A stretch of 64,000 nt of DNA from an archaeon BMS3Abin17 (GTDB taxonomy: Archaea > Nanobdellota > Nanobdellia > Pacearchaeales > GW2011-AR1). The first letter of the stretch is position 1, and each line of letters starts with the position of its first letter. The position numbers were made by a program, and so were the translations under genes. Under the pieces are notes generated by a model. The model did no database searches, was not told where the DNA came from, and saw only the letters and a list, made by a program, of their open reading frames with translations. Positions 13,556 through 54,074 of this stretch are shown here, one piece after another. Where the stretch lies: contig BDTJ01000031.1 in NCBI GenBank assembly GCA_002897655.1, forward strand, positions 19,497 through 83,496, read 5' to 3'.

Positions 13556-13599
13556 TCCATCACAATAATCTATAAAAGTTTGGTTGATTAAGATATTTT

Positions 13600-14328
13600 A
13601 TGATAAAAAGAGGGTTGCTCTTTATTAGCATGGTTTTGAGCTTATTTGTTCTTACAAGTATTTCTGCTGTAACAATAAATGAGGTTGAATTAAATCCTCC
13701 GGGAACAGATGCAGGAAGTGAATGGATTGAGTTTTATATTGATGGATTTACAAATCTTGAGAACTATTCAATAAAAAATAATGATGGTGGAGAAATATTT
13801 CTTAATGGCAACATTAATGGATATTATGTTTATGTATTAGAAAAGCAATGGCTTGACAATTCAGACGAAAAAATATTCTTGTATGAAAATGGGGTTTTAA
13901 TTGAGGATACAATTTTAATGGCGGATAATGAGAACAACAACCAAACATGGCAAGTATGTAATTCATGGAAATTTACTGATGAAACAAAAGGCAACGCAAA
14001 TGATTGTGAAGAAGAAAAAGAAGAGAAGATAGAAGATATTATAAAAGAGCAGGAAAGAGAGAAAGAAGAACAAGAATCAGCTGAAGAGATTAAAAAAGAA
14101 GACATTGAAGAAATTGAGGAGCAGGTGGAGGTTGTTGAAGAAGAAAAAGAGAGGGAGCCAATAATATTAAATCCCAAAGATATAAAAACAGGGGATTATA
14201 AGAAAAATTTAGATAAGAGTGAGTATGCAATAATTGGTTTTATTGTTTTTTGCATTTTACTTATTATCTTATTTATAATAAGCAGGAGAAAAAATGAGTC
14301 CAGACGAGAGAGAGACGAGGGGGATTAA
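13600..14328 (+). CDS. Lamin-tail-domain (LTD) surface protein with an acidic linker and a C-terminal TM anchor
   Basis: Signal peptide. INEVELNPPGTDAGSEWIEFY is an LTD signature. E/K-rich linker. TM segment YAIIGFIVFCILLIILFII. Confidence 0.7.
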   Translation: MIKRGLLFISMVLSLFVLTSISAVTINEVELNPPGTDAGSEWIEFYIDGFTNLENYSIKNNDGGEIFLNGNINGYYVYVLEKQWLDNSDEKIFLYENGVLIEDTILMADNENNNQTWQVCNSWKFTDETKGNANDCEEEKEEKIEDIIKEQEREKEEQESAEEIKKEDIEEIEEQVEVVEEEKEREPIILNPKDIKTGDYKKNLDKSEYAIIGFIVFCILLIILFIISRRKNESRRERDEGD

Positions 14329-19586: not shown

Positions 19587-19615
19587 TATCTCTATTTTGC
19601 TTTATGTTTTGTTTT
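19587..19615. repeat. Right copy of the ~30-bp direct repeat (overlaps the primase stop codon and last codons)
   Basis: See 18719-18748. About 27 of 30 positions are identical, with one 1-nt indel. Confidence 0.7.
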
Positions 19616-28528: not shown

Positions 28529-28861
28529 ATGAAGAACAAAATAAATTCAAAGAAAATAATAAAATCAAAAATGTTAAGTAAAAAGGATATTATTAAAAAA
28601 ATAGAGAAGAACAAGGACAAGCTAAAAGAAAAAAGTATCAAAAAAATTGGAGTATTTGGAAGCTATATAAAAAATAAACAAAATAAAAAAAGTGATATTG
28701 ATATTTTAGTGGAATTTAAGAAACCGACATTTGACAACTATGCAGAAGTAATCATGTTGCTGGAAAAAGTGTTAAGGGGGAAGATAGACTTAATTACTAA
28801 AAAAAGCTTAAGACCTGAATTAAAACATGTAAAAAATGAGGTACAATATGCGAGATTATAA
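28529..28861 (+). CDS. Orphan minimal nucleotidyltransferase (MNT antitoxin-type)
   Basis: IGVFGSYIKNKQNKKSDIDILVEF NTase motif. The ORF track start is 28508; Met at 28529 follows the upstream stop. Confidence 0.75.
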   Translation: MKNKINSKKIIKSKMLSKKDIIKKIEKNKDKLKEKSIKKIGVFGSYIKNKQNKKSDIDILVEFKKPTFDNYAEVIMLLEKVLRGKIDLITKKSLRPELKHVKNEVQYARL

Positions 28862-28895
28862 GCTTTACTTGAAAGATATTTTAACTGCTATAAAT

Positions 28896-30446
28896 ATGAA
28901 AAAATCAATTAAAATAATTATAAGTTTAAGCATATTCTTAAGTATCTTAATTAGTCTGCTTCCATTAACAACTCCTGTTGGAGAGGTTTCATCTTGTTGT
29001 GAGAAAACAATTAGTGGGGCATGGTGTCAGAATTCTGAAGAGAGTAATTGCGACGATGAATACAGAAGCACCCCCACATCTTGTGAGGCAACTTCATTCT
29101 GTAAATTAGGGGTTTGCTATGATAGTAACGAAGGAACCTGTATGGAGAATACTCCTGAAAAAATTTGTGAAGAAGAAGGAGGGGTTTGGGAAGACTCAGA
29201 ACTTGACGAGGTTGAGCAGTGTATATTAGGATGTTGCTTGGTTGGAGATCAAGCAGCTTTTGTAACACAAACAAGATGTACAAAATTATCTTCTTTATAT
29301 GGATTAGAAACTAATTTTAGAACAGACATAACAAATGAGATGGAGTGTATTGCAAGTGCAGAGCCAGATGTAATGGGTGCTTGTGTTTACGAAGAGGAGT
29401 TTACAAATACTTGCAAGTTTATAACAAAAAAAGAGTGCCAGGATATTGAAGATGCGGAATTTCATGAAGATTATCTATGCTCTGATGAAAGTTTAGGGAC
29501 TATTTGCGGACCAAGTGAAAAGACTACTTGTGTTGAAGGAGAAGACCAGGTTTATTTTTTAGATACATGCGGTAATTTAGCAAATATATATGATGCGGAT
29601 AAAATTGAGGATGATTCTTACTGGTCAAAGGTTGTGAGTATAGCAGATAGTTGTGGATATGGAAGCGGCAATGCAGACTCTGCAACCTGTGGAAACTGTG
29701 ATTATTTTTTAGGAAGCACCTGTAAAAAATATAAAAGCAGTGAAGACAAAGTAAAGCCAAATTACGGGGATAATATTTGCAGAGATTTAAGTTGTGAATA
29801 CGAAGGACAAACTTATGAGCATGGAGAAACCTGGTGTGCAGCTGCCGAGGGTATTAAGGTTATAACTAGTTCTACTCAAAGTGATAGTCCATTAAGATAC
29901 AATGTTCCTGGAAGCAGATATACAAGATTAGTCTGTTATGATAATGAAGTAATGGTTGAATCATGTGCTGATTACAGAGCAGAAATCTGTTATCAATCAG
30001 ATGTTAATGGGTTTAAAGCATCTAGTTGTATTGTAAACATGTGGCATGATTGTTATGGTGTGACAAAACAGGAAGATTGTGAAAATACAGCTCAAAGAGA
30101 TTGTGAATGGGTTTCTAAATATTGTATACTAAAGGATGGGGAAGGAGAATGTCTTGCAGAAGCTGGTGCTTGTATCCCAAGATTTGCTCCTGGATTTGAT
30201 TTCTGGAATACAGAAGGAGATGCAGCTACTACCTGCTCTTATGCAAATACAGAATGTGTTGTTACATATAAAAATGGAGAGTGTGAAGAGAATTGTGATT
30301 GTCTGGGGGGTTCATGGGCTCAAGCACAAAATAGTTTTTGTTCTTCACTAGGTGATTGTGGAAGTAGTGTTAATTACATAAACAAAAAAGGATACAATGA
30401 TATTGATGTAATAATAAAAAGTGCTGAAGAAGAGGGAGGAGTATAA
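28896..30446 (+). CDS. Cys-rich surface protein, equivalent to the N-terminal half of the module A giant
   Basis: Cys pattern collinear with residues ~100-560 of 23287..27168. The track ORF starts at 28836, but its first 20 codons (MRYNMRDYKLYLKDILTAIN) look like a DUF86/HEPN N-terminus remnant. MKKSIKIIISLSIFL is the likely signal peptide. Confidence 0.7.
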   Translation: MKKSIKIIISLSIFLSILISLLPLTTPVGEVSSCCEKTISGAWCQNSEESNCDDEYRSTPTSCEATSFCKLGVCYDSNEGTCMENTPEKICEEEGGVWEDSELDEVEQCILGCCLVGDQAAFVTQTRCTKLSSLYGLETNFRTDITNEMECIASAEPDVMGACVYEEEFTNTCKFITKKECQDIEDAEFHEDYLCSDESLGTICGPSEKTTCVEGEDQVYFLDTCGNLANIYDADKIEDDSYWSKVVSIADSCGYGSGNADSATCGNCDYFLGSTCKKYKSSEDKVKPNYGDNICRDLSCEYEGQTYEHGETWCAAAEGIKVITSSTQSDSPLRYNVPGSRYTRLVCYDNEVMVESCADYRAEICYQSDVNGFKASSCIVNMWHDCYGVTKQEDCENTAQRDCEWVSKYCILKDGEGECLAEAGACIPRFAPGFDFWNTEGDAATTCSYANTECVVTYKNGECEENCDCLGGSWAQAQNSFCSSLGDCGSSVNYINKKGYNDIDVIIKSAEEEGGV

Positions 30447-30447
30447 A

Positions 30448-32985
30448 ATGCAAAAGAGGTTAAACACAAGTAAATCAAAGATTTCCTGCACCACGAAATC
30501 TCAGGCTGTGCCTACAACGAGAATCACAGATTCTCGAGCATGCCAACTTCAAGAAAAGAAAGGAAGTTGTCATACGCATAGACATATGAGCAATAATTTC
30601 GTTGGCAAAAAAGGTGCACTGGCATTAAGCCAGATAATCATATTGCTAGTTGGAATCTTTGCTTTTACCTGGAGTATTGGAATTGTTAGTGGTGGTGCTA
30701 TGCCGGAAGAGAATCCTCTAGAAAATCTTGTGTGTGAAAGTTGTCCCCAATCTTCAAGTTCTAATATCCCCACAAGTACAGGAAAAAATACAGCGACAAC
30801 TATAACAAGTGGATACACCCCGGCACAACTTGAGAAGGCTATAAAAAAGGCTACAGAGAGTGTTGGAGAAGAAATTAACAATTTAAATAAAGAAATTGCA
30901 GGATTGGAAGAAGCAGGCACAACATCAACTGAAAAAATTAGTGAATTAGGATCACAACTAACTAATAAAGAAAAAGAGCTTGCTAATCTACAAGCATGTG
31001 TAAAAGATTCTGGTGGTGCCGGATGTAAGGATGTTATAGAAAAAGGAACTACCTCAAAAGGTGGAAGCTCAACCTTATCTGAATGGTTAGGCATAGAGAA
31101 GCTCCCAGAAGGGCAAACAGCAGAATTTTGGACTTGGCAGCAAGGAGGATTTGCAGATGGAATTATTTCAGGAGCACAATACGGACTTATGACTTATGGG
31201 GCTGTTAAAATGCTTGGACCAATGTTAGGACTTGATGAAGAAGAAACAGATGCAGCATCTGTTTCATTAGGTGCAGGAGTTGGTGTGGGAAAATTAATCT
31301 ACACTTTACTTGGTAAGGGAGGTGCTCTAAGTGGAGAAGGAACTATGAATACTATCTTAAAATTTGGAGGAAAATTAAGTTCAGGGTTATCAAGTGTTCT
31401 TTGGGGGGCAATAGTAGCATACATATTATGGAAGATGCTTTATGAAGAAGTTGAATATGATTTAGTCACATTTACATGCGAGCCATGGGAAGCACCTGTT
31501 GGAGGGAGTTATTGTGAAGAGTGTAACAATCAGGGAATCTTGCCTTGCTCAGAATATCAATGCCGTTCACTTGGACAGGCTTGTGAATTATTAAACCAAG
31601 GAACAGATGAAGAAGCATGTACATGGGTAAATAGATATGATGTTGAATATCCTATAATAGAGCCATGGCAGGATGCATTACTTGATAGTTATGATTATAC
31701 CCCTGACAATACTATTTCACCTCCAGATAGGGGTGTGAAAATTGTTTATACAGATTCAGAGGATAATTGCATACCTGCATTCTCTGCATTTAGTTTTGGA
31801 GTAACTGTAAATGAACCTGCAAAATGCAAGATTGATTATATAAGGAAAGAAACATTTGATGAAATGGATTTCTGGTTTGGAGGAAATTCTTTATTTAGAT
31901 ATAATCACACACAAACAATGAGTCTTCCTGGTTTAGAATCTCTATCCTCAGATAATTTAACAGTAGAAAATGATGGAGAGTTTACATTATATACAAGATG
32001 TCAGGATGCTAATGGAAATTCTAATACTGCAACTTTTGTATTCAAGTACTGTGTTGATAAAGGGCCAGATACAACCCCCCCAATGATTGTAGACACAAGC
32101 ATAAAAAACAACATGCCTATTGCATACAACACAAGTTCTGTAGATTTAGAAGTTTATGTAAATGAACCATCAGAGTGTAAATGGAGCCACACAGACCAAT
32201 CTTATGATAACATGGAAGAGCAAATGTCTTGCTCAACTTCAGTAACTGAGATGAATGCCAGGTTATTATACACCTGCACAACAACCCTGACAGGATTAAA
32301 AGACAAGCAGGATAATGACTTTTATTTCAGATGCAAAGACCAACCATCCTCACCTGATGCAGACAGAAATGTAAATACAGAATCTTATGAATTTGTGATA
32401 ATTGGAACCCAGCCATTAGTTATTGATGAAGCCGGACCTAATGAAACAATAAAAGACTCAACAGACAGTGTCAAGGTAACCCTGACAGCAGAAACATCTG
32501 CAGGATATAATGAAGGAGATGCAACCTGCTATTATAGTGAGACAGATTATGATGACGATTACATAATGTTCTTTTATGAAGAAGGAACAAGCTCATACAC
32601 ACATGCTCAGGATTTATGGTTAGGTGAAGGGGATTATTTCTATTACATAAAATGTATTGACTTAGGTGGAAACATGGACAAGGCAAATGTCTCATTTAGT
32701 GTTGATTCTGATACAGATTCTCCTGTAATTGTAAGGGCATATCATGAAGATGAGTATCTAAAACTAATAACAGACGAGACAGCAGAGTGTGTTTATGATA
32801 CAACAAGCTGCAGTTATGATTTTGAAGATGGGATAAAGCTGACTACTTATGATGATGTTGAGCACTATACAGAATGGAATACAGAAGTAGATTTGTTTGT
32901 AAAATGCCAGGATGAATTCGGCAACCAGCCATTGCCTAATGCCTGCAGTATTATCGCGCGTCCTTTTGAAATCTTTGAAGAGTGA
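30448..32985 (+). CDS. Membrane/surface protein, equivalent to the C-terminal half of the module A giant (alternative start at 30586)
   Basis: Conserved FTCEPWEAPVGGSYCEECN...CSEYQCRSLGQAC and beta-domain repeats collinear with 23287..27168. MSNNFVGKKGALALSQIIILLVGIF at 30586 is a class-III-like signal. Confidence 0.7.
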   Translation: MQKRLNTSKSKISCTTKSQAVPTTRITDSRACQLQEKKGSCHTHRHMSNNFVGKKGALALSQIIILLVGIFAFTWSIGIVSGGAMPEENPLENLVCESCPQSSSSNIPTSTGKNTATTITSGYTPAQLEKAIKKATESVGEEINNLNKEIAGLEEAGTTSTEKISELGSQLTNKEKELANLQACVKDSGGAGCKDVIEKGTTSKGGSSTLSEWLGIEKLPEGQTAEFWTWQQGGFADGIISGAQYGLMTYGAVKMLGPMLGLDEEETDAASVSLGAGVGVGKLIYTLLGKGGALSGEGTMNTILKFGGKLSSGLSSVLWGAIVAYILWKMLYEEVEYDLVTFTCEPWEAPVGGSYCEECNNQGILPCSEYQCRSLGQACELLNQGTDEEACTWVNRYDVEYPIIEPWQDALLDSYDYTPDNTISPPDRGVKIVYTDSEDNCIPAFSAFSFGVTVNEPAKCKIDYIRKETFDEMDFWFGGNSLFRYNHTQTMSLPGLESLSSDNLTVENDGEFTLYTRCQDANGNSNTATFVFKYCVDKGPDTTPPMIVDTSIKNNMPIAYNTSSVDLEVYVNEPSECKWSHTDQSYDNMEEQMSCSTSVTEMNARLLYTCTTTLTGLKDKQDNDFYFRCKDQPSSPDADRNVNTESYEFVIIGTQPLVIDEAGPNETIKDSTDSVKVTLTAETSAGYNEGDATCYYSETDYDDDYIMFFYEEGTSSYTHAQDLWLGEGDYFYYIKCIDLGGNMDKANVSFSVDSDTDSPVIVRAYHEDEYLKLITDETAECVYDTTSCSYDFEDGIKLTTYDDVEHYTEWNTEVDLFVKCQDEFGNQPLPNACSIIARPFEIFEE

Positions 32986-33035
32986 AAAATCTAAAGAGAT
33001 AGTCTCATAGCTTTGTAAGAAAAAATTAGAATTAT

Positions 33036-34064
33036 TTAAATTACTCCTGATTCATCAATACTAAAAGTATTTTCTTCAGAATTAATTGTTACATTTACTC
33101 CTAGAGGCAAAGTTATTATCGGATCTGTATGCCCTATATCTACATTAATTAATATTGGAAAATTATACTCTTTAAGATGTTCCTTAATAATTTCTTCAAA
33201 TTGTGTTTTTTCCTCGTCTGAATAACCAAAAGGCCTTCCAACAATTAATCCTTTAATCTTGTTAAAAATCCCTTTATTCTTTAAATCAACTATTTGTGCT
33301 TCAACATAAGGAATTGGTTCTCCTTTAGTAAAATCCTTCCCTTCAGGAGTTTCTATAAATAATATTTTATCTGTATAGTCTAAGTCAATATCAGTTCCTA
33401 TTAAATAAGCTATTGAATGAAGACATCCTCCAACAATATTTGCTTTAGCACTACCTGGTTTTAACCATTTATAACCAGAATTCTTCCCTAATTTACGGGA
33501 TCTTGTTAAATCTAATTTTTGAAACCAATCTAATAATTCACTTGTCCATTCTTCTGATGGCTCAATCTTTCCAAGAGTTCTTCCTTCAACAAGAGTATTA
33601 ATAAAAGAATTCTTTGTATATTCTAATACATCAGGAAACTCTCCAAACTGGGTGATTGCGCAAGGTCCATAAAAAGTAACTAATTCTGCTTTCTTCTGGA
33701 ATGCATAGTGTAGAATAGTTGTGTCAGAATAACCAACAAATATTTTTGGATTTTCTTTTATTATATTGTAATCTATCTTAGAAATAAGCTGATTATTTGA
33801 AATTCCACCAGTAGCACAGATTATCGCCTTAACTTTTTTATCTAAGAACGCATCATGTATATCTTTAATCCTTTCACCAATAGTTCCAGCATTACCATTA
33901 TCATTCAATTTTGTTGTGGGAAATAATTTAACCTTAAAACCTAAATTCTCTAGATTTTTTTTTGCAGCCTCTAATCTGTGTGGAACTAGACTAGCAAGAC
34001 TTCCTGATGGAGCAATAATCCCAATAGTATCTCCAATCTCTAATTTATTTGGTTTAGTTAACAT
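33036..34064 (-). CDS. S66-family serine peptidase (LD-carboxypeptidase / MccF-like)
   Basis: The Ser-Glu-His triad contexts are all present: FVGYSDTTILH, LFIETPEG and VDIGHTDPIITLPLG. Confidence 0.8.
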   Translation of the reverse strand: MLTKPNKLEIGDTIGIIAPSGSLASLVPHRLEAAKKNLENLGFKVKLFPTTKLNDNGNAGTIGERIKDIHDAFLDKKVKAIICATGGISNNQLISKIDYNIIKENPKIFVGYSDTTILHYAFQKKAELVTFYGPCAITQFGEFPDVLEYTKNSFINTLVEGRTLGKIEPSEEWTSELLDWFQKLDLTRSRKLGKNSGYKWLKPGSAKANIVGGCLHSIAYLIGTDIDLDYTDKILFIETPEGKDFTKGEPIPYVEAQIVDLKNKGIFNKIKGLIVGRPFGYSDEEKTQFEEIIKEHLKEYNFPILINVDIGHTDPIITLPLGVNVTINSEENTFSIDESGVI

Positions 34065-35220
34065 TTTTTATATATTTAATTACTTCTTGTGGATTATCAA
34101 ATCTAGCCTCTTTATTTAATTTCCTGTCATTTATCGAGATTCCTGATTTAGAAACAATTATCTTAATAGGTATTCCAAGAAAATCAGATAATTCGGCTTT
34201 TTCTTTTCTCTTTATCCTTTTTCTATCATCATATAACACTCTAGATCCAGATTCATTTAATCCTTGGTATATCTTATTTGCTAAGCTATTAGAAGCTTGA
34301 GAATCAACATCAAATAACAATACACTGCTATCAAAAGGCCTAATCTGCTTAGGTAAATTAAATCCTTGATTGTCTCTAGATGAATCAAATGCTGTATATA
34401 ATACTCGTTCAAGCCCTATTGCATATGTCCCAACAACAGGCTTTATTTCTTCGTTTCCTGAAGAAATTAATGAGACTTTATTGACAGAAGGCATAAACTC
34501 ATACCCCATAGATAAACTTAATGCCTTAACCCTTCCTTCTGAATCATCTAGCACCAGATTATCTCCTTCCTCTCCCTCATAAAAGTATTCTAAATCAAAA
34601 TCAAGGTGCGAACCTCTTCTATTTTCTCCGCCCAAACAAAGCCTTACAGGAATATTTAAATCTCCAAATATAGATTCTGAAATATGCTTATAGGCTTCTA
34701 AAGATTCATTAAAAGATACTCTATCTTTATCTAAAGATAGCATCATGACTACTTCAAATTCTCTGCATTTTAAAATACCTTTTGGATCTTTTATAGGCCT
34801 TAAAATGTCTTTATTTGTAAATAATTTTAAAGGCAAAGCTTTATGTGAGATTTTATCTCTCGATAAATAATCTAATATTTCTGCCTCATGTGTGGTTAAA
34901 AGCATATACTTTTCCATAGGTTCAGGAACCATAACAAATTTCTTCTTAAAAGTTTCTTCAATCTTCTCACCTTGATTTAATAAATCTCTTCTCATAAAAC
35001 TAGGCATTTTAATTTTCAAAGCTCCAACTTCACTGTGTTTTCTCATTACCATGTTTCTAACATTGGAAAGAATAATGTCTCCTATTGGGGGATAATAAGG
35101 TAATCCAGGATTTTTATAATCTACAATAAATCCCAAATCTATTAACTCAGATGTTTTCTTATCCATAATCCCCTTTGGAATTCTCATTAAATTTTGAAGG
35201 GGTAGGCTACTGAGTCTCAT
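34054..35220 (-). CDS. Divergent class IIa aminoacyl-tRNA-synthetase-like protein (ProRS-like core plus HGTP anticodon-binding-type domain)
   Basis: Motif 2-like ILRPIKDPKGILKCREFEVV, motif 3-like GTYAIGLERVLYTAF, TTHEAEIL (compare PTSEE). C-terminal alpha/beta domain (VLLFDVD...GIPIKIIVS). Only 388 aa, with no Zn/C-terminal domain. Confidence 0.6.
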   Translation of the reverse strand: MRLSSLPLQNLMRIPKGIMDKKTSELIDLGFIVDYKNPGLPYYPPIGDIILSNVRNMVMRKHSEVGALKIKMPSFMRRDLLNQGEKIEETFKKKFVMVPEPMEKYMLLTTHEAEILDYLSRDKISHKALPLKLFTNKDILRPIKDPKGILKCREFEVVMMLSLDKDRVSFNESLEAYKHISESIFGDLNIPVRLCLGGENRRGSHLDFDLEYFYEGEEGDNLVLDDSEGRVKALSLSMGYEFMPSVNKVSLISSGNEEIKPVVGTYAIGLERVLYTAFDSSRDNQGFNLPKQIRPFDSSVLLFDVDSQASNSLANKIYQGLNESGSRVLYDDRKRIKRKEKAELSDFLGIPIKIIVSKSGISINDRKLNKEARFDNPQEVIKYIKNVN

Positions 35221-36041
35221 TTAATCTCCTTTGAAGTGTAAAGTTCTTTATCTTCCCAAACCATTTTATTTGATAATAAAATAATACTAAAACCCATCTT
35301 AGATAAATTATCCCTAAATAAATACATGTAATCCTTATATTTCTTATAAAGTGTATTCAAAGTATCTTTTCTCATTTCTTTTAAGTGAGCTCTATCTAAA
35401 ATATTTTCTACAAATGATTTCACTTCTTTGTCCATTATATAATCAAATTTAAACTTTTTAGTATAATAAACTTCTAAATTAGGTATATCAAAAAATTTAT
35501 CCCAGTCTTTTTCAAACAAAGGACTTATATTAACTTGAATTGCTTCACTAACTTCTTTGATTAATTTATTGAATGGTTTAACTATATAATACATTGGAAC
35601 AGCAACTATAAACCCTGATTTTTTACAAACCCTCCTACATTCATTAAATGCTTGTTCCTTGTTAGACATTAGTGAAAGAACATTGCCAATAATAACTAAA
35701 TCAAAACTTTCATCATCAAAAGGCAATTTATTTACATCTGCTTTTAGAAGTTTTAAGTTCTCGACTTTTTCTTTTATTGCCCTTTTCCTTGTTTCTTTTA
35801 AACTTATCTCATTAATATCTATTGAAGTAATATAACAAGGAATTAATTTGCTTAATTCAATTGCAGTAAAACCGGTGCTAGTACCGATTTCTAAAACTTT
35901 ACTATGTCTGTCTATACAAGTTCTATTAACAATTTCAAAAACAGTTTTTCTTCCCCCAGGAATTCTATTTGTTTCTTTTGTAATTCCAATTAACTCGTTA
36001 TAATCCATGTCTTTAATTTGCTTGGGGGTTAAATCTTTCAT
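35217..36041 (-). CDS. Class I SAM-dependent methyltransferase
   Basis: Motif I VLEIGTSTGFTAIEL. Motifs DINEISL and FDLVIIGNVL. 4-nt ATGA overlap with the downstream gene. Confidence 0.75.
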   Translation of the reverse strand: MKDLTPKQIKDMDYNELIGITKETNRIPGGRKTVFEIVNRTCIDRHSKVLEIGTSTGFTAIELSKLIPCYITSIDINEISLKETRKRAIKEKVENLKLLKADVNKLPFDDESFDLVIIGNVLSLMSNKEQAFNECRRVCKKSGFIVAVPMYYIVKPFNKLIKEVSEAIQVNISPLFEKDWDKFFDIPNLEVYYTKKFKFDYIMDKEVKSFVENILDRAHLKEMRKDTLNTLYKKYKDYMYLFRDNLSKMGFSIILLSNKMVWEDKELYTSKEIK

Positions 36042-36042
36042 T

Positions 36043-37182
36043 TTATGGTTTTAAAGTTTTATCAACTCTAGGAAATTGTGATGCACTCCAAATAAAAGGC
36101 ATCTCTAAAATACCTTGTATCATTCTTTCCAATCCAACTCCAAATCCAGAAGTAACTTCATAATCTTCAAATTTCCTGGTTTGAAAGTAAGGACTATAAT
36201 CTTTTAAGGGTAGATTGAAAATCTTTGCTTTATCTTGAAGTTCCTTTTTTGACCTTATTCTATGTCCACTTCCAATAAACTCTCTATATCCTGGCCAAAT
36301 TACATCTGAATTATTAGCGACTTCAGGTTTTTTGCAATCTACTTGAGCATGATAAAAAGGAACTTCTAAGAGTGGAAATTCTTTTATTAGAACCATATTT
36401 CCTAAAATCTCAGTAAGTTTTATTTCTTCCCATGAACCAAAATTCTTGAGTGAAAATTCCTTATAAACATCATCTTTAGTTTCTTCATAAAGAATATCAA
36501 GAGCCTCTCTAAATTTTAGTTGGGGTATTCTCCCTATATTTGCTGCAAAATTATCTAGAGATTTCAGTTTCCTTTTAGTTAAAAAATGGCTTAAGTCTTT
36601 TTCATTTTTATTTAATAAGTCTTTAATTATCTTTTTTGTAAGGCCTAATGCAATTCGTTCATTATCTTCTTGAGACACCTTACCCTCATATTCTATATGA
36701 TGAAATTCAGATAAATGAGTTGCATCAGCTTTTTCCTTTCTAAATGAATTGTATATGGAATAAACATGTTTAAGCTCTTTTGGAGTTAATGCTAATTCAA
36801 GATATATTTGAGAGGATTCAGATAAAAATGCAGAATCTTCTAAATCAAACCATTTCAAGGTTATTGGGCATACATCAGTTGTATAATCAATGGCCTCTTT
36901 TCCATATACTGCCCCTGGAGAAGAGATCATCTTTGTTGTCAAAGGTAATGGAACAAAACAAGCACCAATGTTATCAAAATACTCATTTGTAGACATATTT
37001 ATTCTGTGATTTATCTGAGTTATATGCTTCCACATATCTTCTTTCTTAAATTGTTTAACTCTATTTTCAATTTCATTAATAGGAACTTTTTTACTAGATA
37101 TGTCCTCTATTACTGGAAACACATTATTTCCATTATATGAAATGCTTTTATCTTCATTAGCTCTGTATGGACCTTTCATCAT
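36043..37182 (-). CDS. Class IIb aaRS catalytic-core paralogue without an OB anticodon-binding domain (AsnRS/AspRS-like; AsnA-type ligase candidate)
   Basis: SESSQIYLELAL. Motif 2 FRKEKADATHLSEFHHIEYE. EFIGSGHRIRS. Motif 3 SGFGVGLERMIQGIL. No N-terminal OB fold. Confidence 0.65.
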   Translation of the reverse strand: MMKGPYRANEDKSISYNGNNVFPVIEDISSKKVPINEIENRVKQFKKEDMWKHITQINHRINMSTNEYFDNIGACFVPLPLTTKMISSPGAVYGKEAIDYTTDVCPITLKWFDLEDSAFLSESSQIYLELALTPKELKHVYSIYNSFRKEKADATHLSEFHHIEYEGKVSQEDNERIALGLTKKIIKDLLNKNEKDLSHFLTKRKLKSLDNFAANIGRIPQLKFREALDILYEETKDDVYKEFSLKNFGSWEEIKLTEILGNMVLIKEFPLLEVPFYHAQVDCKKPEVANNSDVIWPGYREFIGSGHRIRSKKELQDKAKIFNLPLKDYSPYFQTRKFEDYEVTSGFGVGLERMIQGILEMPFIWSASQFPRVDKTLKP

Positions 37183-37362
37183 AATCTATCCAGAATTAAG
37201 TGTCTGAGGCACTAACACCTCATATTATATACTACAATAGACTATTTAAAAACATTACTAATTAAATTATTTTCCATAAAAATTCAAGAGACGCCCGTGT
37301 TTAAGCTTTATTATTCCCTAGTTTTCAGACAAATTTATAAGCATTAAATCCTATTTTTATTC

Positions 37363-37875
37363 ATGATTAAGAAGAGGGGAAGTAAAAGAGGGCAAATGAA
37401 ATTATCCTATGGAATGATATTCTCAATCATATTAATAATAGTTTTCCTTGCATTTGCATTTTACGCAATTAAGAAATTTATGGGAATTCAAAATACTGTA
37501 ATGGTTGGGGATTTTATAGACAGTTTGGGGAGTGATGTTGACAAAATGTGGAAAGGCTCACAAGGCTCTCAAGAAAGAGAATATAGGTTGCCAAAAAAGA
37601 TACAGTATGTTTGTTTTGCTGATTTCTATTCCTCAGAAAGAGGGGGAAAAGATGAATATTATCCTGAATTAAAGAGGGTATTTAATGAAAAAGAAAATCT
37701 TGTTTTTTATCCTGTTGGCTCGGGGGGGGAATTTGACTCTGTTGAAGTAAAACATATTGATATTGAAGCCATGACAGAAAATAACAACCCGTACTGCATT
37801 GAAAACAAGGATGGAAAGGTAAATATGATAATTAAAAAAAATCATGGAGAAGCCTTAGTTACTGTCTCTGATTAA
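37363..37875 (+). CDS. Pilin-like protein (class III signal peptide)
   Basis: MIKKRGSKRGQMKLSYGMIFSIILIIVFLAFAFYAI. Confidence 0.65.
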   Translation: MIKKRGSKRGQMKLSYGMIFSIILIIVFLAFAFYAIKKFMGIQNTVMVGDFIDSLGSDVDKMWKGSQGSQEREYRLPKKIQYVCFADFYSSERGGKDEYYPELKRVFNEKENLVFYPVGSGGEFDSVEVKHIDIEAMTENNNPYCIENKDGKVNMIIKKNHGEALVTVSD

Positions 37876-37898
37876 AATAAAATCTGTGTCTAAATAAA

Positions 37899-38861
37899 AT
37901 GAAAACCAAGATTCCCAACAATAAAAAAGGTTATTTGCAAATATCCTTTGGATGGATGTTTGCACTTATTGTGGGGGCATTTATATTATTTCTTGCAATT
38001 TATTTTGCTACAAAACTTATTGGAACAGAAGAGGATATAACAGATATAAAAACAGGAAAAGAAATAGGGATTTTATTGAATCCTCTTGAAACAGGTTTTG
38101 AATCTGTAAAATCAACCTCTCTGACAATGCCTGTTGATACAAGAATATACAACAAATGCAAGATTGACGGATATTTTGGGAGGCAGTTAATTGAGATATC
38201 CCAAAAAAGTCTGGGCAAATGGACAGAAACAGATATTGGAGGGGCTAAAACAGTTGGATTTTCAAACAAATACATCTTCACAGAAAATTACACAGAAGGG
38301 AAAAAATTCTATATAATGTCTAAGCCTTTTAATTTTCCATTTAAGGTTACTGATTTAATTTATATTACTTCCTCAAAGGACAAGTATTGTTTTTTAGATC
38401 CTCCAGAAGAAATTAAAGAGGAGATTTCCACCCTGAGCCAGAACCAGAAAAATCTTTTATTGGAAGAGAACTGCACAGACTTTGGAGATGAAATAAAGAT
38501 TTGTTTTGAAGGGGGGGTGGATTGTGATGTTTTTGTTGATTATAATTCTAATTATGTGGATAAAAATGGAGAAAGAATGATATTCATAGATGATTCCCTG
38601 ATGTATGCTGCTATTTTCTCAGAACCGGGAATTTATGAGTGCCAGGTAAAAAGATTAATGTTAAGAACAAAACAACTTGCTTCTTTGTATAATGATAAAG
38701 CCACATTTATTTCTCAAAAAGGCTGCAACTCTAATTTAAACCTACTTGAACTAATCAATAGATTAAATAATTATGAAGACTCAGATAATCTTGGCTATGT
38801 AAAAGATAGCGTAGATGATATCCAGGATAAAAATAATGATTTATGGTGTAAATTATGGTAG
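37899..38861 (+). CDS. Pilin-like protein (class III signal peptide)
   Basis: NNKKGYLQISFGWMFALIVGAFILFLAIYF. Several Cys residues in the extracellular part. Confidence 0.65.
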   Translation: MKTKIPNNKKGYLQISFGWMFALIVGAFILFLAIYFATKLIGTEEDITDIKTGKEIGILLNPLETGFESVKSTSLTMPVDTRIYNKCKIDGYFGRQLIEISQKSLGKWTETDIGGAKTVGFSNKYIFTENYTEGKKFYIMSKPFNFPFKVTDLIYITSSKDKYCFLDPPEEIKEEISTLSQNQKNLLLEENCTDFGDEIKICFEGGVDCDVFVDYNSNYVDKNGERMIFIDDSLMYAAIFSEPGIYECQVKRLMLRTKQLASLYNDKATFISQKGCNSNLNLLELINRLNNYEDSDNLGYVKDSVDDIQDKNNDLWCKLW

Positions 38862-39490
38862 ATAAAAAAGCGCAGCTAAAAACAAAGAAATTAAAAACAC
38901 CAAAATTAAAATTTTGGCAGTCTCAGAAATTTCCAATTTCTGAGATTCCTAGCTTTCAATTGTCTAGGAAGAAGAGAGGACAATTGAAAATACAGCAAAT
39001 GGCTTTTATGCTAATGGCAGTAACACTGTTTTTTGTGCTTGTTGGAATGTTTGTTCTTGTTATTAAATTCTCAGGGCTTAAAGATACTGCAACAGAATTA
39101 TGCGAAGAAAACGCAATGTTATTAGTAACAAAACTTGCAAACTCTCCTGAATTTTCTTGTGGAAGGGCTTTTGGAAGCAGCAGAACTAATTGCATTGATG
39201 GAGACAAGGTAATGATGTTAAAAGAAAATATAGAGATTTATGAGAAATTTTGGGGGGTTACAAACATAGAAATAAGAAAGATATCTGATGAACCAGAAAA
39301 AGTGTGTGATTTAGGGGGTTATCAGCAAGACAATTGCAATGTAATAAGATTAATCTCAAAAAATGTATCAGGTTATAGCATGTCAAACTTTGTATCTTTA
39401 TGCAGAAAAGATTATGTTGATGAAGAGGTTTATGATAAATGTGAGATGGCTAAATTAATATTAAGTTATGAATATGGGGAAAGATGTTAA
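38855..39490 (+). CDS. Pilin-like protein (class III signal peptide; start uncertain, possibly an internal TTG near 38960)
   Basis: SRKKRGQLKIQQMAFMLMAVTLFFVLVGMFVLVI, preceded by an unusually long 40-aa basic leader. Confidence 0.55.
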   Translation: MVDKKAQLKTKKLKTPKLKFWQSQKFPISEIPSFQLSRKKRGQLKIQQMAFMLMAVTLFFVLVGMFVLVIKFSGLKDTATELCEENAMLLVTKLANSPEFSCGRAFGSSRTNCIDGDKVMMLKENIEIYEKFWGVTNIEIRKISDEPEKVCDLGGYQQDNCNVIRLISKNVSGYSMSNFVSLCRKDYVDEEVYDKCEMAKLILSYEYGERC

Positions 39491-39960
39491 ATAAAAGAGC
39501 TCAAGAAGAAATGGTTGGATTTGCATTGATAATCATAGTTGTTGCTGTTATCTTGCTTATCTTTTTATCATTTTCATTAAGAGATTCAAAAAAAGAGACA
39601 GTTGAAAGTTATGAGATTGAGAGTTTTATTAACGCATTCTTGCAGCACACAACAGATTGTGGAAGTTATAGAACATCTCATCTTTCAATAAGAGAGTTAA
39701 TCTTTGATTGTAATAGTAATGAGAAATGTTTAGACGAGAGAGATACTTGTGAGGTCTTGAATTCTACTTTGGTAGAAATCTTAGATGAAAACTGGAAAAT
39801 AGGGGAAGACAGGCCAATAAAAGGATATGAATTAAAAATTCTTAGGAATAGTGCAGTTAGCATGGTTATTCAAAAAGGGGATATTACTAAGAACTATAAA
39901 GGAGATTTTGTTGATTTAGGAAAAGCCTCAACAGAGGTATATTTCACAGCATATTATTGA
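39484..39960 (+). CDS. Pilin-like protein (class III signal peptide)
   Basis: MLNKRAQEEMVGFALIIIVVAVILLIFLSF. 7-nt overlap with the upstream gene. Confidence 0.65.
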   Translation: MLNKRAQEEMVGFALIIIVVAVILLIFLSFSLRDSKKETVESYEIESFINAFLQHTTDCGSYRTSHLSIRELIFDCNSNEKCLDERDTCEVLNSTLVEILDENWKIGEDRPIKGYELKILRNSAVSMVIQKGDITKNYKGDFVDLGKASTEVYFTAYY

Positions 39961-40033: not shown

Positions 40034-40942
40034 ATGGCATCTCTAAAGAAGATTAAAGTGAAAGGTAATGAATATTGGGTCTTAGCTCATTCAGTTAGAA
40101 AAGGCAGCAAGATTATCCAAAAGAAAAAATATATTGGGAAAGTTTTACCTCCAAAAGCTAGATTAGAGCAGTTGAAAAAAGAATTCTTGAAAGAATTAAC
40201 TATTGGAAGGTATAAGTTCATTTCTAATAAAGATGTTGAGGAAATAGAAAAAAAGAAGGCAGTTCATAACGAAGAACTCAAAAAAATGAGTTCTTCGGAG
40301 AAAAAGGAGAAATTACAGGAATTTATAATTAGATTTACTTATGATAGCAGTAAACTTGCAGGTGTTGATGTAACTTTAAGACAAACTTCTTTAATTTTAA
40401 AAGAAGGGATTATGCCAAAAGGATTTAAAAGTCTGAAGATAGCAAAAGAACTTGAGAATCATAAAGAAGGGATTATTGCCATAACTAAGTATAAAGGCAA
40501 GTTAGACATAAAATTCCTTAAGAAAATTCATAAAATTTTACTTTCAGGAGTAAATGATTCAATCGCTGGAAAATTAAGAAGTGAATTAAAAAGAGATGTA
40601 AAGATAGCTGGAACCTCTTATATTCCTCCAAAATGGAATCAAGTTAATAAAGAACTTGAAAGTTTTTTTAAATGGTATAGTTTAGAAAACAGGAGATTCC
40701 ATCCTATTGAATTAGCTTCATTAATACATTTAAAGTTAATCTCAATACAGCCTTTTGTAGATGGAAATTCTAGGCTATCAAGGTTATTAATGGATTGGAT
40801 TTTGTGGAAAAAGGGATATCCTTTAATAGATATCCCTGTAGAAGATATTGAAGATTACTATGATGTTCTGGATAAATATCAAATTGAAAAGAAAGAAAAA
40901 CCTTTTGTAGATTATATCAAAAAGAAATATTTTAAGGGATAA
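40034..40942 (+). CDS. Fic/DOC-family protein with a variant active-site motif (Gln in place of the catalytic His)
   Basis: QPFVDGNSRLSRLL versus canonical HPFx[DE]GNGRxxR. Fido-fold-sized 302 aa. Confidence 0.7.
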   Translation: MASLKKIKVKGNEYWVLAHSVRKGSKIIQKKKYIGKVLPPKARLEQLKKEFLKELTIGRYKFISNKDVEEIEKKKAVHNEELKKMSSSEKKEKLQEFIIRFTYDSSKLAGVDVTLRQTSLILKEGIMPKGFKSLKIAKELENHKEGIIAITKYKGKLDIKFLKKIHKILLSGVNDSIAGKLRSELKRDVKIAGTSYIPPKWNQVNKELESFFKWYSLENRRFHPIELASLIHLKLISIQPFVDGNSRLSRLLMDWILWKKGYPLIDIPVEDIEDYYDVLDKYQIEKKEKPFVDYIKKKYFKG

Positions 40943-41103: not shown

Positions 41104-41394
41104 TTAGTAATGAAATTTCTTCTTGTATATTTTATCGTGATGGTCAAAATCAACAAATAAAATAAAATTGTTTGGGATATCAACTTTAAACGCTAATACA
41201 AAACTTCTATCAATGTGAACTCTTCTATATTCTTTTAAATCATGTCTTAAATTCTTATAATGTTGTATTGATTGAGAATTAGAATTAATAATCTCCTTTA
41301 TTTTTTTATTTATTATCTCAACCTTTTTTTTATCTCCCTTGATCAATTTTCTTATAATAATTTTAAGTTCATCAGTAAGATTAAAATCAAACAT
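41104..41394 (-). CDS. RelE-family toxin
   Basis: YRRVHIDRSFVLAFKVD...ILFVDFDHHDKIY is a typical archaeal RelE C-terminal signature. Confidence 0.7.
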   Translation of the reverse strand: MFDFNLTDELKIIIRKLIKGDKKKVEIINKKIKEIINSNSQSIQHYKNLRHDLKEYRRVHIDRSFVLAFKVDIPNNFILFVDFDHHDKIYKKKFHY

Positions 41395-41396
41395 AT

Positions 41397-41657
41397 TTAA
41401 ACCTCACAAAGTTTATCTAACTCTTGCAAGGTCATCTTTTTATTGCCGTACTTTTCTAAGTGTTTTTTGGTTATGTTAATTATTTTTTTAACGTGTTCTT
41501 CAGTTGCTTCTTTTTCCATAATTTCATCTCCATATAGTTCAATAAATTTATTTAAGGCTCCTGATTTATCTTTTAATCCAAATTTTAACTTTATTATTCC
41601 CAGTACTCTATTAGTATAATCATTCAACTCAACTCTTGCAGAAACTATTTTTTCCAT
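41397..41657 (-). CDS. Antitoxin (DUF2683-like) paired with RelE
   Basis: MEKIVSARVELNDYTNRVLGIIKLKFGLKDKSGALN. The track ORF extends to 41720, but Met22 gives a length matching its paralogue. Confidence 0.65.
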   Translation of the reverse strand: MEKIVSARVELNDYTNRVLGIIKLKFGLKDKSGALNKFIELYGDEIMEKEATEEHVKKIINITKKHLEKYGNKKMTLQELDKLCEV

Positions 41658-41766
41658 TTTATATAATGTGATTCTATATGTATTTAAAATACACACCAAG
41701 TATATAAACGTTTCTATCATACACTCTGTCTCGACAAGAAAAATATTTTAAGAAATAACAACATTA

Positions 41767-42120
41767 CTAGATTTTTATGTGAATTGTCATTGTATCAACA
41801 ACTATCTCTGGTTTATGCCTTATTCTGCCCTTTGTCTTTTCTGCGGTTAACTCAATAAACCCAAATCTCTCTAAAAGCTTAAGATCATCATTTACAGACT
41901 TAAATCCTCTATCTAGCTTTTTAGCCAAATCATAAATTGATTTGGGCTTTTCACTCTTTATAACACTTAAAATCCTGGCTTTCTCATTACTCAAAAGCTG
42001 TCTCAAAGCCAAAACTCCTGAGAAATCATAGTCTTTTTTTGAGGTTTTAGATTGTTTAAAAATACTAAATGCTCCTTTAGACTCTTTTATTGTAATCTCC
42101 CTTATTTTTGTCTTTGCCAT
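41767..42120 (-). CDS. Winged-helix DNA-binding protein
   Basis: SIYDLAKKLDRGFKSVNDDLKLLERFGFIEL is a wHTH recognition-helix and wing pattern. Confidence 0.55.
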   Translation of the reverse strand: MAKTKIREITIKESKGAFSIFKQSKTSKKDYDFSGVLALRQLLSNEKARILSVIKSEKPKSIYDLAKKLDRGFKSVNDDLKLLERFGFIELTAEKTKGRIRHKPEIVVDTMTIHIKI

Positions 42121-49003: not shown

Positions 49004-50605
49004 TTATCTTCGGACAACTCTTACTGCCACAACTATAATTATTATTACCAAAACAATGTTAAGTATTCCAATTCCCCACAAGTACCAGTTATCTTCTGTG
49101 ATTATATTTCCAGTAATTCCTGAGAATCTTGATTTTCCTTCAATCTCAACTGAAACTGCCTGCTTTGTTATTAGCTCGTTTTCTGATACAATCTCAACAT
49201 CAAACGTGTTTTCTCCTTCCACATCTGATTTAACACTGAACGTCATAAGGATATTTTCTGAATCTCCTTTATCAAGAGTGATTGTACTCTTGTCTAAATC
49301 AACTGAATCTGCCCAAGTAGTATATCCTGCTGCATTTATTGAGTAAGTAGCTGAATCATCTCCTGTATTTGTAATAGTTGTCTTAATAACTAAATCCTCT
49401 CCTGCTTTCCCGCCAGACTCAATCTCTGCAGATACAGCTGCCATTGTTTGCTTAATAGCACAACTTTCTATCTTAATAGGAACAGAAAACTCTGATTCAT
49501 CATTATTTTCATTCTCATAAACATCTCCGTCTTCGTCATTAACCCATAACTTGATTGTGTAGAATTTCTTATCTAGCTCTTCAGGAACAACAAAGGTGAA
49601 GTCTAATTTTTCACTATCAAAAGCATTTACATCTCCAATAGCTAATTCCTCATTGATTCCCAAATCTTTACTGTATATTGTTACAGAAACCGCATCTTGA
49701 TCATCCTGACCAATATTCCAGACATCTGCAGTCATTTGAATCTCGTCTCCGCATGAAGCTGATTCTGGAAGTGTAATATCATCAAGAATAACAAAATCAT
49801 CCTCAATTGTTAATTTTATTGAATCTGAAGCCCCAGTACACTCATTATCTTCATCTAAATCATTACTGTAAACTTTAACATAAAATGTAAAATCTTCATC
49901 TATATCCTCATCAAGGTCATCAGGATTCACATTAAAATTAAGCACGACTTCCTTTTTTTTACCATCCTTAAGATTAAATTCTGACTCTTCATCATCAATA
50001 ATCCATGTTTCTGTGTCTTCATCATATAATCCCCATTCAATCACTATGTCATTAATCTTATCATTGCCCTTATTTTTAACTTTAACAGTTACTTCAATAT
50101 CATCGAGAGGGTACCATTCATCATCTTTTTCCCCAAATCCTTTAACATTATCTATATTAACATCAATATCCAGATTTCCACCCTGCTCTCCAAGAGAACA
50201 GAAGTTATCATTGTCAAAAGTTATTCCTGCTTCAAGAGAATCTGTAACAGAACTATTTGCTGTGCTTACAGCATCTATAGTGAAAGTAGTAGAAGCAGTT
50301 CCTAAGTTAAAGTCCTTGTTGTTTGTAGCAGTAATCTCAAAAGTTGCTGAAGTTATATTTGTTGAGCCTGAAGTAAGATTTATTGCCACAGAAATATCGT
50401 TGTTGTCAGAGTCTGTTATGATTGCAGTTGTATCATAAGAGCTTATATCAAAGCTCTCATCACCATCAACTGTTAGTGTTGCTGAAAGAGTATCAGGAGT
50501 AAGTGTAACAGAACTAGCTGTTAGAGTCAAAGCAAAAGCAAAACTAACAAACATTATCGTTGCTAAAATACTTAAACTTAACAAACCTAATATTTTGCTT
50601 TTCAT
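49004..50605 (-). CDS. Surface protein with CARDB-like beta-sandwich repeats and a C-terminal TM+RR tail (candidate sortase substrate)
   Basis: Signal peptide. Repeats (VTVKVKNKGNDKINDIVIEW, VSVTIYSKDLG, LVIKTTITNTGDDSATY). C-terminus NWYLWGIGILNIVLVIIIIVVAVRVVRR. Confidence 0.65.
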   Translation of the reverse strand: MKSKILGLLSLSILATIMFVSFAFALTLTASSVTLTPDTLSATLTVDGDESFDISSYDTTAIITDSDNNDISVAINLTSGSTNITSATFEITATNNKDFNLGTASTTFTIDAVSTANSSVTDSLEAGITFDNDNFCSLGEQGGNLDIDVNIDNVKGFGEKDDEWYPLDDIEVTVKVKNKGNDKINDIVIEWGLYDEDTETWIIDDEESEFNLKDGKKKEVVLNFNVNPDDLDEDIDEDFTFYVKVYSNDLDEDNECTGASDSIKLTIEDDFVILDDITLPESASCGDEIQMTADVWNIGQDDQDAVSVTIYSKDLGINEELAIGDVNAFDSEKLDFTFVVPEELDKKFYTIKLWVNDEDGDVYENENNDESEFSVPIKIESCAIKQTMAAVSAEIESGGKAGEDLVIKTTITNTGDDSATYSINAAGYTTWADSVDLDKSTITLDKGDSENILMTFSVKSDVEGENTFDVEIVSENELITKQAVSVEIEGKSRFSGITGNIITEDNWYLWGIGILNIVLVIIIIVVAVRVVRR

Positions 50606-53956: not shown

Positions 53957-53968
53957 TTTATTATGAAA

Positions 53969-54041
53969 TGGGGCTACCAGGATTTGAACCTGGGTCATGA
54001 AGTCCCAAACCTCATAGGCTACCAAACTACCCCATAACCCC
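53969..54041 (-). tRNA. tRNA-Pro (anticodon UGG)
   Basis: Hand-folded cloverleaf. Acceptor GGGGTTA/TAGCCCC. D arm GGGT..GCCT. Anticodon stem TGAGG/CTTCA with loop TT-TGG-GA. T arm CCAGG-TTCAAAT-CCTGG. Discriminator A. CCA is not encoded. Confidence 0.85.
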
Positions 54042-54074
54042 ATGAAAAATAAAAGCTTTGATGAATTTATAAAG

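Follow-up and report, generated by a model that had tools for sequence, protein, structure and literature searches.

In the 64,000-nucleotide stretch of the archaeon BMS3Abin17 analysed here (Pacearchaeales, GW2011-AR1; contig BDTJ01000031.1, positions 19,497 to 83,496; hereafter the window), four tightly packed minus-strand genes encode two paralogues of aminoacyl-tRNA synthetases (aaRSs), an S-adenosylmethionine (SAM)-dependent transferase and a serine hydrolase. We propose, with a probability of about 0.62, that this operon is a minimal and self-contained cassette of the agrocin 84/microcin C kind, which would make an aaRS-poisoning mimic of an aminoacyl-adenylate and protect its producer. 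The product would most likely be a non-hydrolysable N-acyl phosphoramidate nucleotide poisoning an aaRS in other cells. The four genes, in the order of their transcription, are as follows.

36043-37182, minus strand: AsnRS-type core, AgnA-like, 379 aa (list of open reading frames (ORFs); class IIb catalytic core, no OB domain)
35217-36041, minus strand: SAM-dependent transferase of the AgnB1/MccD family, 274 aa (ORF list and domain matches)
34054-35220, minus strand: ProRS-derived class IIa protein of the bacterial P-type, 388 aa (ORF list and profiles)
33036-34064, minus strand: S66 serine hydrolase of the MccF clade, AgnC5-like, 342 aa (ORF list and domains)

The coordinates given by an earlier reading of the letters (the sequence-only reading) are exact in the ORF list: 1 nt (36042) separates the first two genes, and the next two junctions are overlaps of 4 nt (35217-35220) and 11 nt (34054-34064).

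Homology to agrocin 84 genes and conservation of the arrangement

A tblastn search of plasmids with the S66 protein found agnC5 of pAgK84, the agrocin 84 plasmid of Rhizobium rhizogenes K84, whose map comprises agnA ('agrocin 84 synthetase', 353 aa), agnB1 (SAM methyltransferase), agnB2 (LeuRS) and agnC1-C7, including the MccF-like agnC5. Three of the four window proteins are homologous to AgnA, AgnB1 and AgnC5, and the order agnA - agnB1 - aaRS, together with an MccF-like gene, is the same as in the window operon. When all Agn proteins were compared with the window by tblastn, these three were the only ones to match the operon. According to published work, AgnA is a shortened AsnRS which lacks the anticodon domain and which has been put forward as the enzyme making the phosphoramide bond, and AgnB2 is an agrocin-resistant LeuRS serving self-immunity (PMC4392301, PMC8323819). 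The sequence-only reading had suggested a small-molecule pathway built on aminoacyl-adenylate chemistry with an MccF-like hydrolase; the three agn homologues in the same order and the matches to MccD and MccF detailed below argue for such a pathway.

The AgnA-like protein belongs to a large family, with more than 650 relatives in a word-indexed database (the best 120 being 376-413 aa long and 60-72% identical) and 38 related clusters in a representative library at E≤1e-30. A scan of species-representative genomes gave 47 loci with relatives of the 379-aa protein, and their surroundings were covered over ±10 kb of the related contigs, as compared with 64 kb of the host genome. The hosts are DPANN archaea including Woese-, Pace-, Nano-, Aenigm- and Micrarchaeota, the cultivated haloarchaea Natrinema altunense, N. 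gari and Haloarcula regularis (46-51% identity), and bacteria, including a 1.7-Mb Paenibacillus contig, a 513-kb gammaproteobacterial contig and bacterial metagenome-assembled genomes.

Neighbours were counted from called and clustered ORFs in the 28 loci with at least 3 kb of sequence upstream and at least 4 kb downstream. Within 5 kb of the AgnA-like gene, a second aaRS-derived gene is present in 23 of these loci, an S66, HIT or S51 hydrolase in 22 and a methyltransferase in 21. The four-gene arrangement is far beyond chance, and the co-conservation that the sequence-only reading had put forward as a check is found in dozens of genomes of archaea and bacteria.

What varies among the loci is the identity of the partner and of the hydrolase. 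The partner slot is occupied by ProRS-like proteins, by LysRS-like proteins with an OB domain, by MetRS-like proteins or by archaeal LeuRS-like proteins without editing domain, as well as by a full LeuRS in Natrinema and a non-discriminating AspRS in the gammaproteobacterium. In related cassettes, the partners stay under their family cut-offs (275-418 bits for the LysRS-like ones in L008, L013 and L031), whereas the housekeeping LysRS of the window scores above its own. The latter, encoded at 5742-7202 on the plus strand, is a canonical class II LysRS (625 bits, cut-off 468) and presumably the housekeeping enzyme. As for the hydrolase slot, it holds an S66, HIT or S51 enzyme depending on the locus, and for these three hydrolase classes (MccF, MccH and MccG, respectively) experiments have demonstrated the detoxification of processed microcin C (PMC8323819, PMC9239234). 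Recurrent additional genes encode a pyridoxal phosphate (PLP) decarboxylase, radical SAM enzymes, an APH-type kinase and an AsnC/Lrp regulator, and in haloarchaea an ABC-2 exporter. The PLP decarboxylase of some related cassettes resembles MccE1 (E=9e-8).

Two further observations concern these related loci. A protein of ~330 aa without any Pfam or NCBIfam match (cluster C6, e.g. 11980-12963 of L026) recurs beside the AgnA-like gene in L022, L026, L030, L032, L033 and L041, usually with a HIT protein in place of S66. In Natrinema altunense and N. gari (L035 and L037, ~6000-14000), the genes run methyltransferase - full-length LeuRS (1043 bits) - AgnA-like - ABC ATPase - ABC-2 permease; the cluster adjoins a gene for an NAD-dependent DNA ligase and is followed by an S66 gene in L035 only.

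The AgnA-like core, the SAM enzyme and the S66 hydrolase

In the 379-aa protein, Pfam recognizes PF00152 only, with no PF01336/OB domain, and among the NCBIfam models the protein reaches 145 bits for asnS (cut-off 414, the profile being entered at position 118) and 110 bits for AsnA (cut-off 389). Its AlphaFold2 (AF2) model (predicted local distance difference test score, pLDDT, 80.5) finds in Foldseek the catalytic domains of the AsnRS structures 9sh8 and 1x54 as top matches; the position of the OB domain is taken in it by a small N-terminal hairpin of ~40 aa (residues 1-35 of the model). With FRKE at 147, THLSEF at 155 and GFGVGLER at 346, the protein is an AsnRS-type class IIb core with motifs 2 and 3 intact and no OB domain, as had been read from the letters; more generally, the family assignments made for the operon hold in Pfam, NCBIfam, AF2 and Foldseek. 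Motif 2 (FRKE...THLSEFHHIEYE), motif 3 (GFGVGLER), the metal and ATP residues and the AsnRS-type 'SxQxYLE' amino-acid pocket are invariant in 52 family members, whichever aaRS partner accompanies them.

The resemblance to AgnA extends over ~330 aa (BLASTP, 27% identity, E=1e-27) and includes a common variant of motif 2, D-x-T-H-L-(S/A)-E-F. The structures of the archaeal asparagine synthetase A (AS-AR), 3p8t and 1nnh, match residues ~267-373 only, with E values of ~2e-4 to 3e-4. A natural fusion of an AgnA-like core with a methyltransferase is found in P0149.

Distant class IIb cores lacking the OB domain also occur in large fusion proteins, with an isoaspartyl-peptidase/asparaginase_2 in P0289 and P0293, with asparaginase-type, HIT and carnitine-acyltransferase domains in P0207 and P0286, and with a RimL-type GNAT in P0193. 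The HIT and GNAT fusion partners echo the immunity enzymes of microcin C.

The 274-aa protein has the class I SAM-dependent methyltransferase fold expected from the sequence-only reading (Pfam Methyltransf_11/25/31). It is 37% identical to AgnB1 over 270 of its 274 residues (E=4e-66) and 32% identical to the MccD of Escherichia coli (pRPEC180_47; E=1e-27), which AgnB1 also matches, and its gene shares the position and orientation of agnB1, which directly follows agnA on pAgK84. In 29 loci the methyltransferase gene adjoins that of the AgnA-like protein. MccD, itself of the methyltransferase fold, moves a 3-amino-3-carboxypropyl group from SAM onto the phosphoramidate phosphate of microcin C, the group being then decarboxylated by MccE1 (PMC8323819). 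To judge from this kinship, the window enzyme probably decorates a nucleotide phosphoramidate by transfer of either a methyl or a 3-amino-3-carboxypropyl group.

The 342-aa protein contains the N- and C-terminal S66 domains of Pfam and is matched over its full length by members of the MccF clade (5f1y, 8e-57; Bacillus anthracis MccF 3gjz, 2e-46; E. coli MccF 3tla, 4e-42), whereas the murein LD-carboxypeptidases (LdcA) match its N-terminal domain only (1e-10 to 1e-16). Its identity with AgnC5 amounts to 33% (E=1e-68). The Ser/Glu/His triad noted earlier is borne out by the alignment of S113, E238 and H312 with S118, E243 and H311 of MccF. In addition, W180 aligns with W186 of MccF, a residue which stacks on the adenine of processed microcin C (PMC8323819), and all 17 cassette-associated S66 proteins compared have this Trp.

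The ProRS-derived partner

The 388-aa protein reaches 115 bits, in two pieces, for proS_fam_II of NCBIfam (cut-off 558) and 25.4 for PF00587 (gathering score 29.3). Its family profile matches the ProRS of Enterococcus faecalis (2j3l) with E=6e-44, residues 1-199 and 249-361 of the query corresponding to residues 1-199 and 424-536 of 2j3l. From this two-piece match it follows that the INS editing domain has been deleted and the region replaced by ~50 residues. The AF2 model (pLDDT 90; predicted template-modelling score 0.89) matches whole ProRS structures in Foldseek, including the anticodon-binding domain, the best being the mini-INS enzyme of Rhodopseudomonas palustris (2i4l, TMq 0.85). Invariant or nearly so in the family are the TxE loop (T110/E112), R141 of motif 2, R153, G269/R272 of motif 3 and the DDR motif (331-333) of the anticodon-binding domain. 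The protein looks catalytically competent. The sequence-only reading was right about the anticodon-binding domain and about the atypical motif 2 (LRPI at 140); its remark on a missing Zn domain does not stand, that domain being an E-type feature, and what this P-type protein lacks is INS.

This family is small (26 homologues, all at ≤55% identity), and each of the four homologues looked up sits in an 'AgnA-like - methyltransferase - [LeuRS-like] - ProRS-like - S66' cassette. Being seen only inside cassettes, these proteins are therefore probably not housekeeping ProRSs. Besides, archaea use E-type ProRS (PMC11229370), and the tRNA-Pro(UGG) of the window (53968-54042, minus strand), with its G1-C72 pair, A73 and no encoded CCA, has the archaeal type of acceptor, which differs from the G72/A73 type recognized by bacterial P-type ProRS.

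These data bear on the mundane explanation which the sequence-only reading had itself offered, namely that the 379-aa protein is an asparagine synthetase or AsnRS and the 388-aa protein a degenerate housekeeping ProRS, brought together by chance. The public annotation of the 378-aa family is indeed 'asparagine--tRNA ligase', DPANN proteins are often shortened, and the canonical housekeeping LysRS of the window means that aaRS genes occur in the region. However, the missing OB domain and the three scores given above for AsnRS, AsnA and ProRS, all far under their cut-offs, are at odds with it, and so are the C72/A73 type of the window tRNA-Pro, the tandem ProRS-like pairs of L016 and L034, the recurrence of the neighbourhood in haloarchaea and on the Paenibacillus and gammaproteobacterial contigs, and the divergence of the ProRS-like proteins to 22-55% identity where the AgnA-like ones hold 55-72%. 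With 64 kb of the genome covered, we regard this explanation as extremely improbable.

The sequence-only reading also treated, implicitly, both aaRS-like proteins as ligases. This has to be qualified, for the ProRS-like protein may instead, or also, be a resistant copy of the target, as AgnB2 is. Its location in the AgnB2 position, its whole anticodon-binding domain and ATP site and its divergent motif 2 suggest such an immunity copy. Conversely, the pocket of the AgnA-like protein is constant across partners, which in a cassette of four genes leaves the specificity to the partner alone; furthermore, some cassettes hold both a LeuRS-like and a ProRS-like partner, of which at least one may therefore be biosynthetic. 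In the agn cluster itself, a ProRS-derived protein, AgnC1, is present alongside the resistant LeuRS. AgnC1 is of the archaeal E-type (1nj1, E=3.7e-18) and lacks the TxE residues that bind the amino group (RPDAA for RPTSE), a loss in keeping with the hydroxy acid that agrocin 84 contains. In the window protein the TxE residues are kept, and its substrate is therefore probably a true amino or imino acid. Altogether, a role in biosynthesis and specificity, possibly with resistance in addition, appears somewhat more likely than resistance alone.

We also considered the 388-aa protein as an orthologue of AgnC1 and rejected this possibility: BLASTP gave nothing, hhalign with the single AgnC1 sequence gave a probability of 0.1%, and a profile of six AgnC1 sequences gave a collinear but weak match (E=0.011, probability 3.8%). 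By sequence comparison, the two proteins are analogous recruits, not orthologues.

A related possibility is that the whole operon is a resistance-only island against aminoacyl-nucleotide antibiotics made by others, in which a ProRS insensitive to the drug would act together with an MccF-like hydrolase and modifying enzymes. Stand-alone homologues of MccF, MccH and MccG do give resistance without biosynthesis (PMC8323819, PMC9239234), and the ProRS-like protein retains its anticodon-binding domain and all ATP-site residues. Yet the most conserved and defining gene is that of the AgnA-like core, which, like its fused or adjacent AgnB1/MccD-type partner, is biosynthetic in both known systems, and it is not obvious how an AsnRS core deprived of its anticodon domain would help a cell to resist such compounds. 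Such an island appears to us distinctly unlikely.

Proposed pathway, genomic surroundings and known systems

If the operon is a biosynthetic cassette of the agrocin 84/microcin C kind, the following pathway can be envisaged. The AgnA-like core, which reads no anticodon and has a full ATP and amino-acid site, would catalyze adenylation and P-N bond formation with a constant substrate of the Asn/Asp type, following the role that has been proposed, never proven, for AgnA. The SAM enzyme of the AgnB1/MccD family would decorate the phosphoramidate. The ProRS-derived variable module would set the amino-acid specificity, by supplying a prolyl moiety, by acting as a toxin-insensitive ProRS in the manner of AgnB2, or both. 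Finally, the hydrolase of the MccF clade would cleave the acyl-N bond of toxin building up inside the producer. We infer all four steps from homology.

Several facts weigh against this pathway. Even the agrocin 84 pathway is still unproven according to the literature (PMC4392301, PMC8323819). In a crude neighbour-joining tree with no support values, the 379-aa protein falls in a sister clade to that of AgnA and is not clearly its orthologue. Homologues of agnC1-C4, C6, C7, D, E, F and G, which on pAgK84 account for the pentanamide, 3'-deoxy-arabinose and glucofuranosyl-phosphoramidate moieties and for the exporter, are absent from the window by tblastn, and the cassette is therefore unable to build the sugar and opine-mimic portions of agrocin 84. 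Neither the ORF list nor the domains of the flanking ORFs hold an exporter gene in or beside the cassette. The striking conservation of the AgnA-like protein and its frequency in genome-reduced DPANN would fit a physiological role as well.

Such a role defines another explanation, according to which the product of the cassette, an aminoacylated or amidated nucleotide or metabolite, would serve the physiology of the cell itself (as a cofactor, a signalling nucleotide or a precursor for surface or lipid aminoacylation) and would be no weapon, the S66, HIT or S51 enzymes serving the turnover or proofreading of this metabolite. In its favour, besides the >650 matches mentioned above (the best 120 at 60-72% identity) and the missing exporter, truncated aaRS paralogues such as the archaeal AsnA and EpmA are known as plain ligases. 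Against it, MccD, MccF, AgnB2 and the MccH and MccG classes, which are all the homologues of known function, act in toxin pathways or in immunity to them (PMC8323819, PMC9239234). The cassette also occurs patchily, in a few haloarchaea and scattered bacteria, and the specificity module is swapped among close relatives, as is typical of conflict systems. We thus consider a purely physiological role unlikely.

As a variation on the toxin theme, the cassette could represent a ribosome-independent, aaRS-paralogue route to Trojan-horse antibiotics similar to microcin C, which would be widespread in DPANN. The AsnRS-like core would then run the two-ATP chemistry of MccB on free Asn, through Asn-AMP, a succinimide and N-adenylation, to yield isoasparaginyl-adenylate, a poison of AspRS, and the MccD-like enzyme would decorate its phosphate. 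The swappable aaRS-derived partners, one or two per cassette, would append the amino acid(s) masking the warhead in the producer and carrying it into target cells or, in a variant of this scheme, would build an aminoacyl-phosphoramidate through 'reaction hijacking' of their own aminoacyl-tRNA. If true, DPANN archaea would have their first described pathway to a small-molecule antibiotic, and the enzymology of its P-N bond would be new. At present, this route seems to us a doubtful one.

Under the reading we favour, a minimal agrocin 84/microcin C-type cassette, what is new is most likely a minimal, modular and mainly archaeal form of these aaRS-inhibitor systems. A full-text literature search returned no paper linking agrocin-type clusters with archaea or describing the 378-aa family, and a 2021 review placed agn-like clusters in Ensifer and Actinobacteria only. 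The conserved core would be reduced to four genes, for an AgnA-like protein, an AgnB1/MccD-like enzyme, one aaRS-derived module and an MccF-like hydrolase; it is common in DPANN, present in the cultivable Natrinema and modular in its aaRS partner. It would thus offer a small and tractable system to understand how an aaRS paralogue makes a phosphoramidate mimic of an aminoacyl-adenylate, and natural inhibitors of various synthetases (Pro, Lys, Met, Leu and Asp) can be predicted to form a family. If true, this would be rare evidence that genome-reduced symbiotic archaea wage chemical warfare or manipulate their hosts.

Regarding the organization of the operon, two non-coding features frame the four genes.

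37183-37362, no strand assigned: AT-rich divergent intergenic region, presumed promoter site (direct reading, gene orientation)
33017-33030, minus strand: T-rich run (ttttttctt), candidate archaeal oligo-T terminator (direct reading, ORF orientation)

The upstream region spans 180 bp, and the adjoining plus-strand genes run away from the operon; at the other end, the oligo-T run sits a few bases past the last stop codon, and the next downstream gene converges on the operon. The G+C content of the window is ~32%. The called start codons are backed by full-length alignments from residue 1-2, for the methyltransferase with AgnB1 and for the S66 protein with Ba3275 and AgnC5, and by the alignment of the ProRS-like N-terminus with ProRS from residue 1. 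Homologues of the 379-aa protein begin with 'MLGPY', and its translation may therefore really begin 3 nt further on, at the second ATG. A bacterial promoter and terminator scan gave no excess over the shuffled expectation, with 22 sigma-70 sites for 23.9 expected, such a bacterial model being uninformative for an archaeal host. Rfam and ARAGORN found in the window one tRNA-Pro only, distant from the operon, and nothing inside it. Run on the four proteins, PADLOC returned a generic methyltransferase match (mad2) and nothing for the other three; anti-phage defence was accordingly dropped as a reading, for PADLOC had given nothing relevant to it.

The surroundings of the cassette deserve a brief description. 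On its downstream side, two large Cys-rich proteins (536 and 854 aa; plus strand, 28836-32985) flank it, both starting with a signal or transmembrane segment and matching nothing in Pfam, and their homologues also flank, in a different arrangement, the Woesearchaeota cassette L007 (8146-9927 and 14773-17205). Divergent from the operon, four consecutive small proteins are encoded on the plus strand (37363-39960), each with an N-terminal hydrophobic segment resembling a pilin or class III signal and without Pfam match. Further on, 2.9 kb upstream of the operon, lies the gene of a Fic/DOC-family protein (40034-40942, plus strand; PF02661, E=2e-19), the Fic motif of which reads QPFVDGNSR, with Q in place of H. 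Fic genes adjoin the S66 gene in the metagenome loci L051 (8419-9312) and L052 (7942-8835), and a homologous ORF is found near the L021 cassette (7485-8423); this proximity may reflect an association with the cassette or a coincidence. At 41104-42120 (minus strand), a weak ParE-toxin-like ORF (96 aa, below the gathering score), its upstream 107-aa partner and a winged-helix protein of the HVO_A0114 family are probably a toxin-antitoxin pair with a regulator.

At a greater distance, the window encodes a putative S-layer protein with a PACE-CTERM sorting domain (49004-50605, minus strand; 431 bits, cut-off 110), indicative of a Pacearchaeota-like host, and a 516-aa protein with weak matches to the primase subunits PriS and PriL, which may be a fused primase (19592-21142, minus strand). 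An LL-diaminopimelate aminotransferase (484 bits, above cut-off) is encoded beside a diaminopimelate decarboxylase-like gene (245 bits, cut-off 298) at 57644-60176 (minus strand), and such genes of the lysine/diaminopimelate pathway are unexpected in a supposedly auxotrophic DPANN genome.

Among known enzymes, AS-AR resembles the AgnA-like protein in architecture, both being class IIb cores without the OB domain, but the match between them is weak and partial and the neighbourhood is that of a conflict-type cassette rather than of amino-acid metabolism. From canonical AsnRS, the protein differs by the absence of the N-terminal OB anticodon-binding domain and by a score under the curated cut-off. 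Similarly, the 388-aa protein shares with canonical ProRS the class IIa core, the TxE loop, the Arg residues of motifs 2 and 3 and the anticodon-binding domain, but has neither the INS domain of the P-type nor the C-terminal Zn domain of the E-type. As an extra and divergent aaRS in the AgnB2 position of a cluster, it recalls the self-resistance enzymes, such as the AgnB2 LeuRS, the MetRS of actinobacterial agn-like clusters and the aspS or asnS products of some mcc-like clusters; in contrast with these, the window partner has no editing domain, and some related cassettes possess two partners, one LeuRS-like and one ProRS-like.

As a chemical lead for the product, and as a lead only, phosmidosine may be considered. 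Its phosphate bears an O-methyl group, which would suit a ProRS-type module combined with a SAM enzyme. No gene cluster for this compound was found in the searchable literature. Made by Streptomyces, it is a natural N-acyl phosphoramidate nucleotide resembling Pro-AMP (PMC11229370, PMC6429109).

The comparison with microcin C is instructive in both directions. No ThiF-like MccB is encoded among the four proteins or the flanking ORFs, and no MccA peptide was found, short ORFs not having been systematically searched; membership as a simple variant of the mcc operon was dropped for this reason, and the homology to MccD and MccF retained. The adenylating enzyme of the window cassette is instead an aaRS paralogue, and the cassette has no exporter of the major facilitator superfamily and no GNAT. 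What is common to both is an MccD-type SAM transferase and an MccF-type S66 hydrolase with its triad and its W186 equivalent kept, to which related cassettes add an MccE1-like PLP decarboxylase and HIT (MccH-class) or S51 (MccG-class) hydrolases. With respect to agrocin 84, the aaRS slot is filled here by a P-type-derived ProRS-like protein and on pAgK84 by a LeuRS, AgnC1 is E-type-derived and not detectably orthologous to the window protein, the host is an archaeon and the AgnA-like protein belongs to the sister clade. The gene order and three homologous proteins are common to both, and shared MccD/AgnB1 and MccF/AgnC5 enzymes tie the agrocin systems to those of microcin C.

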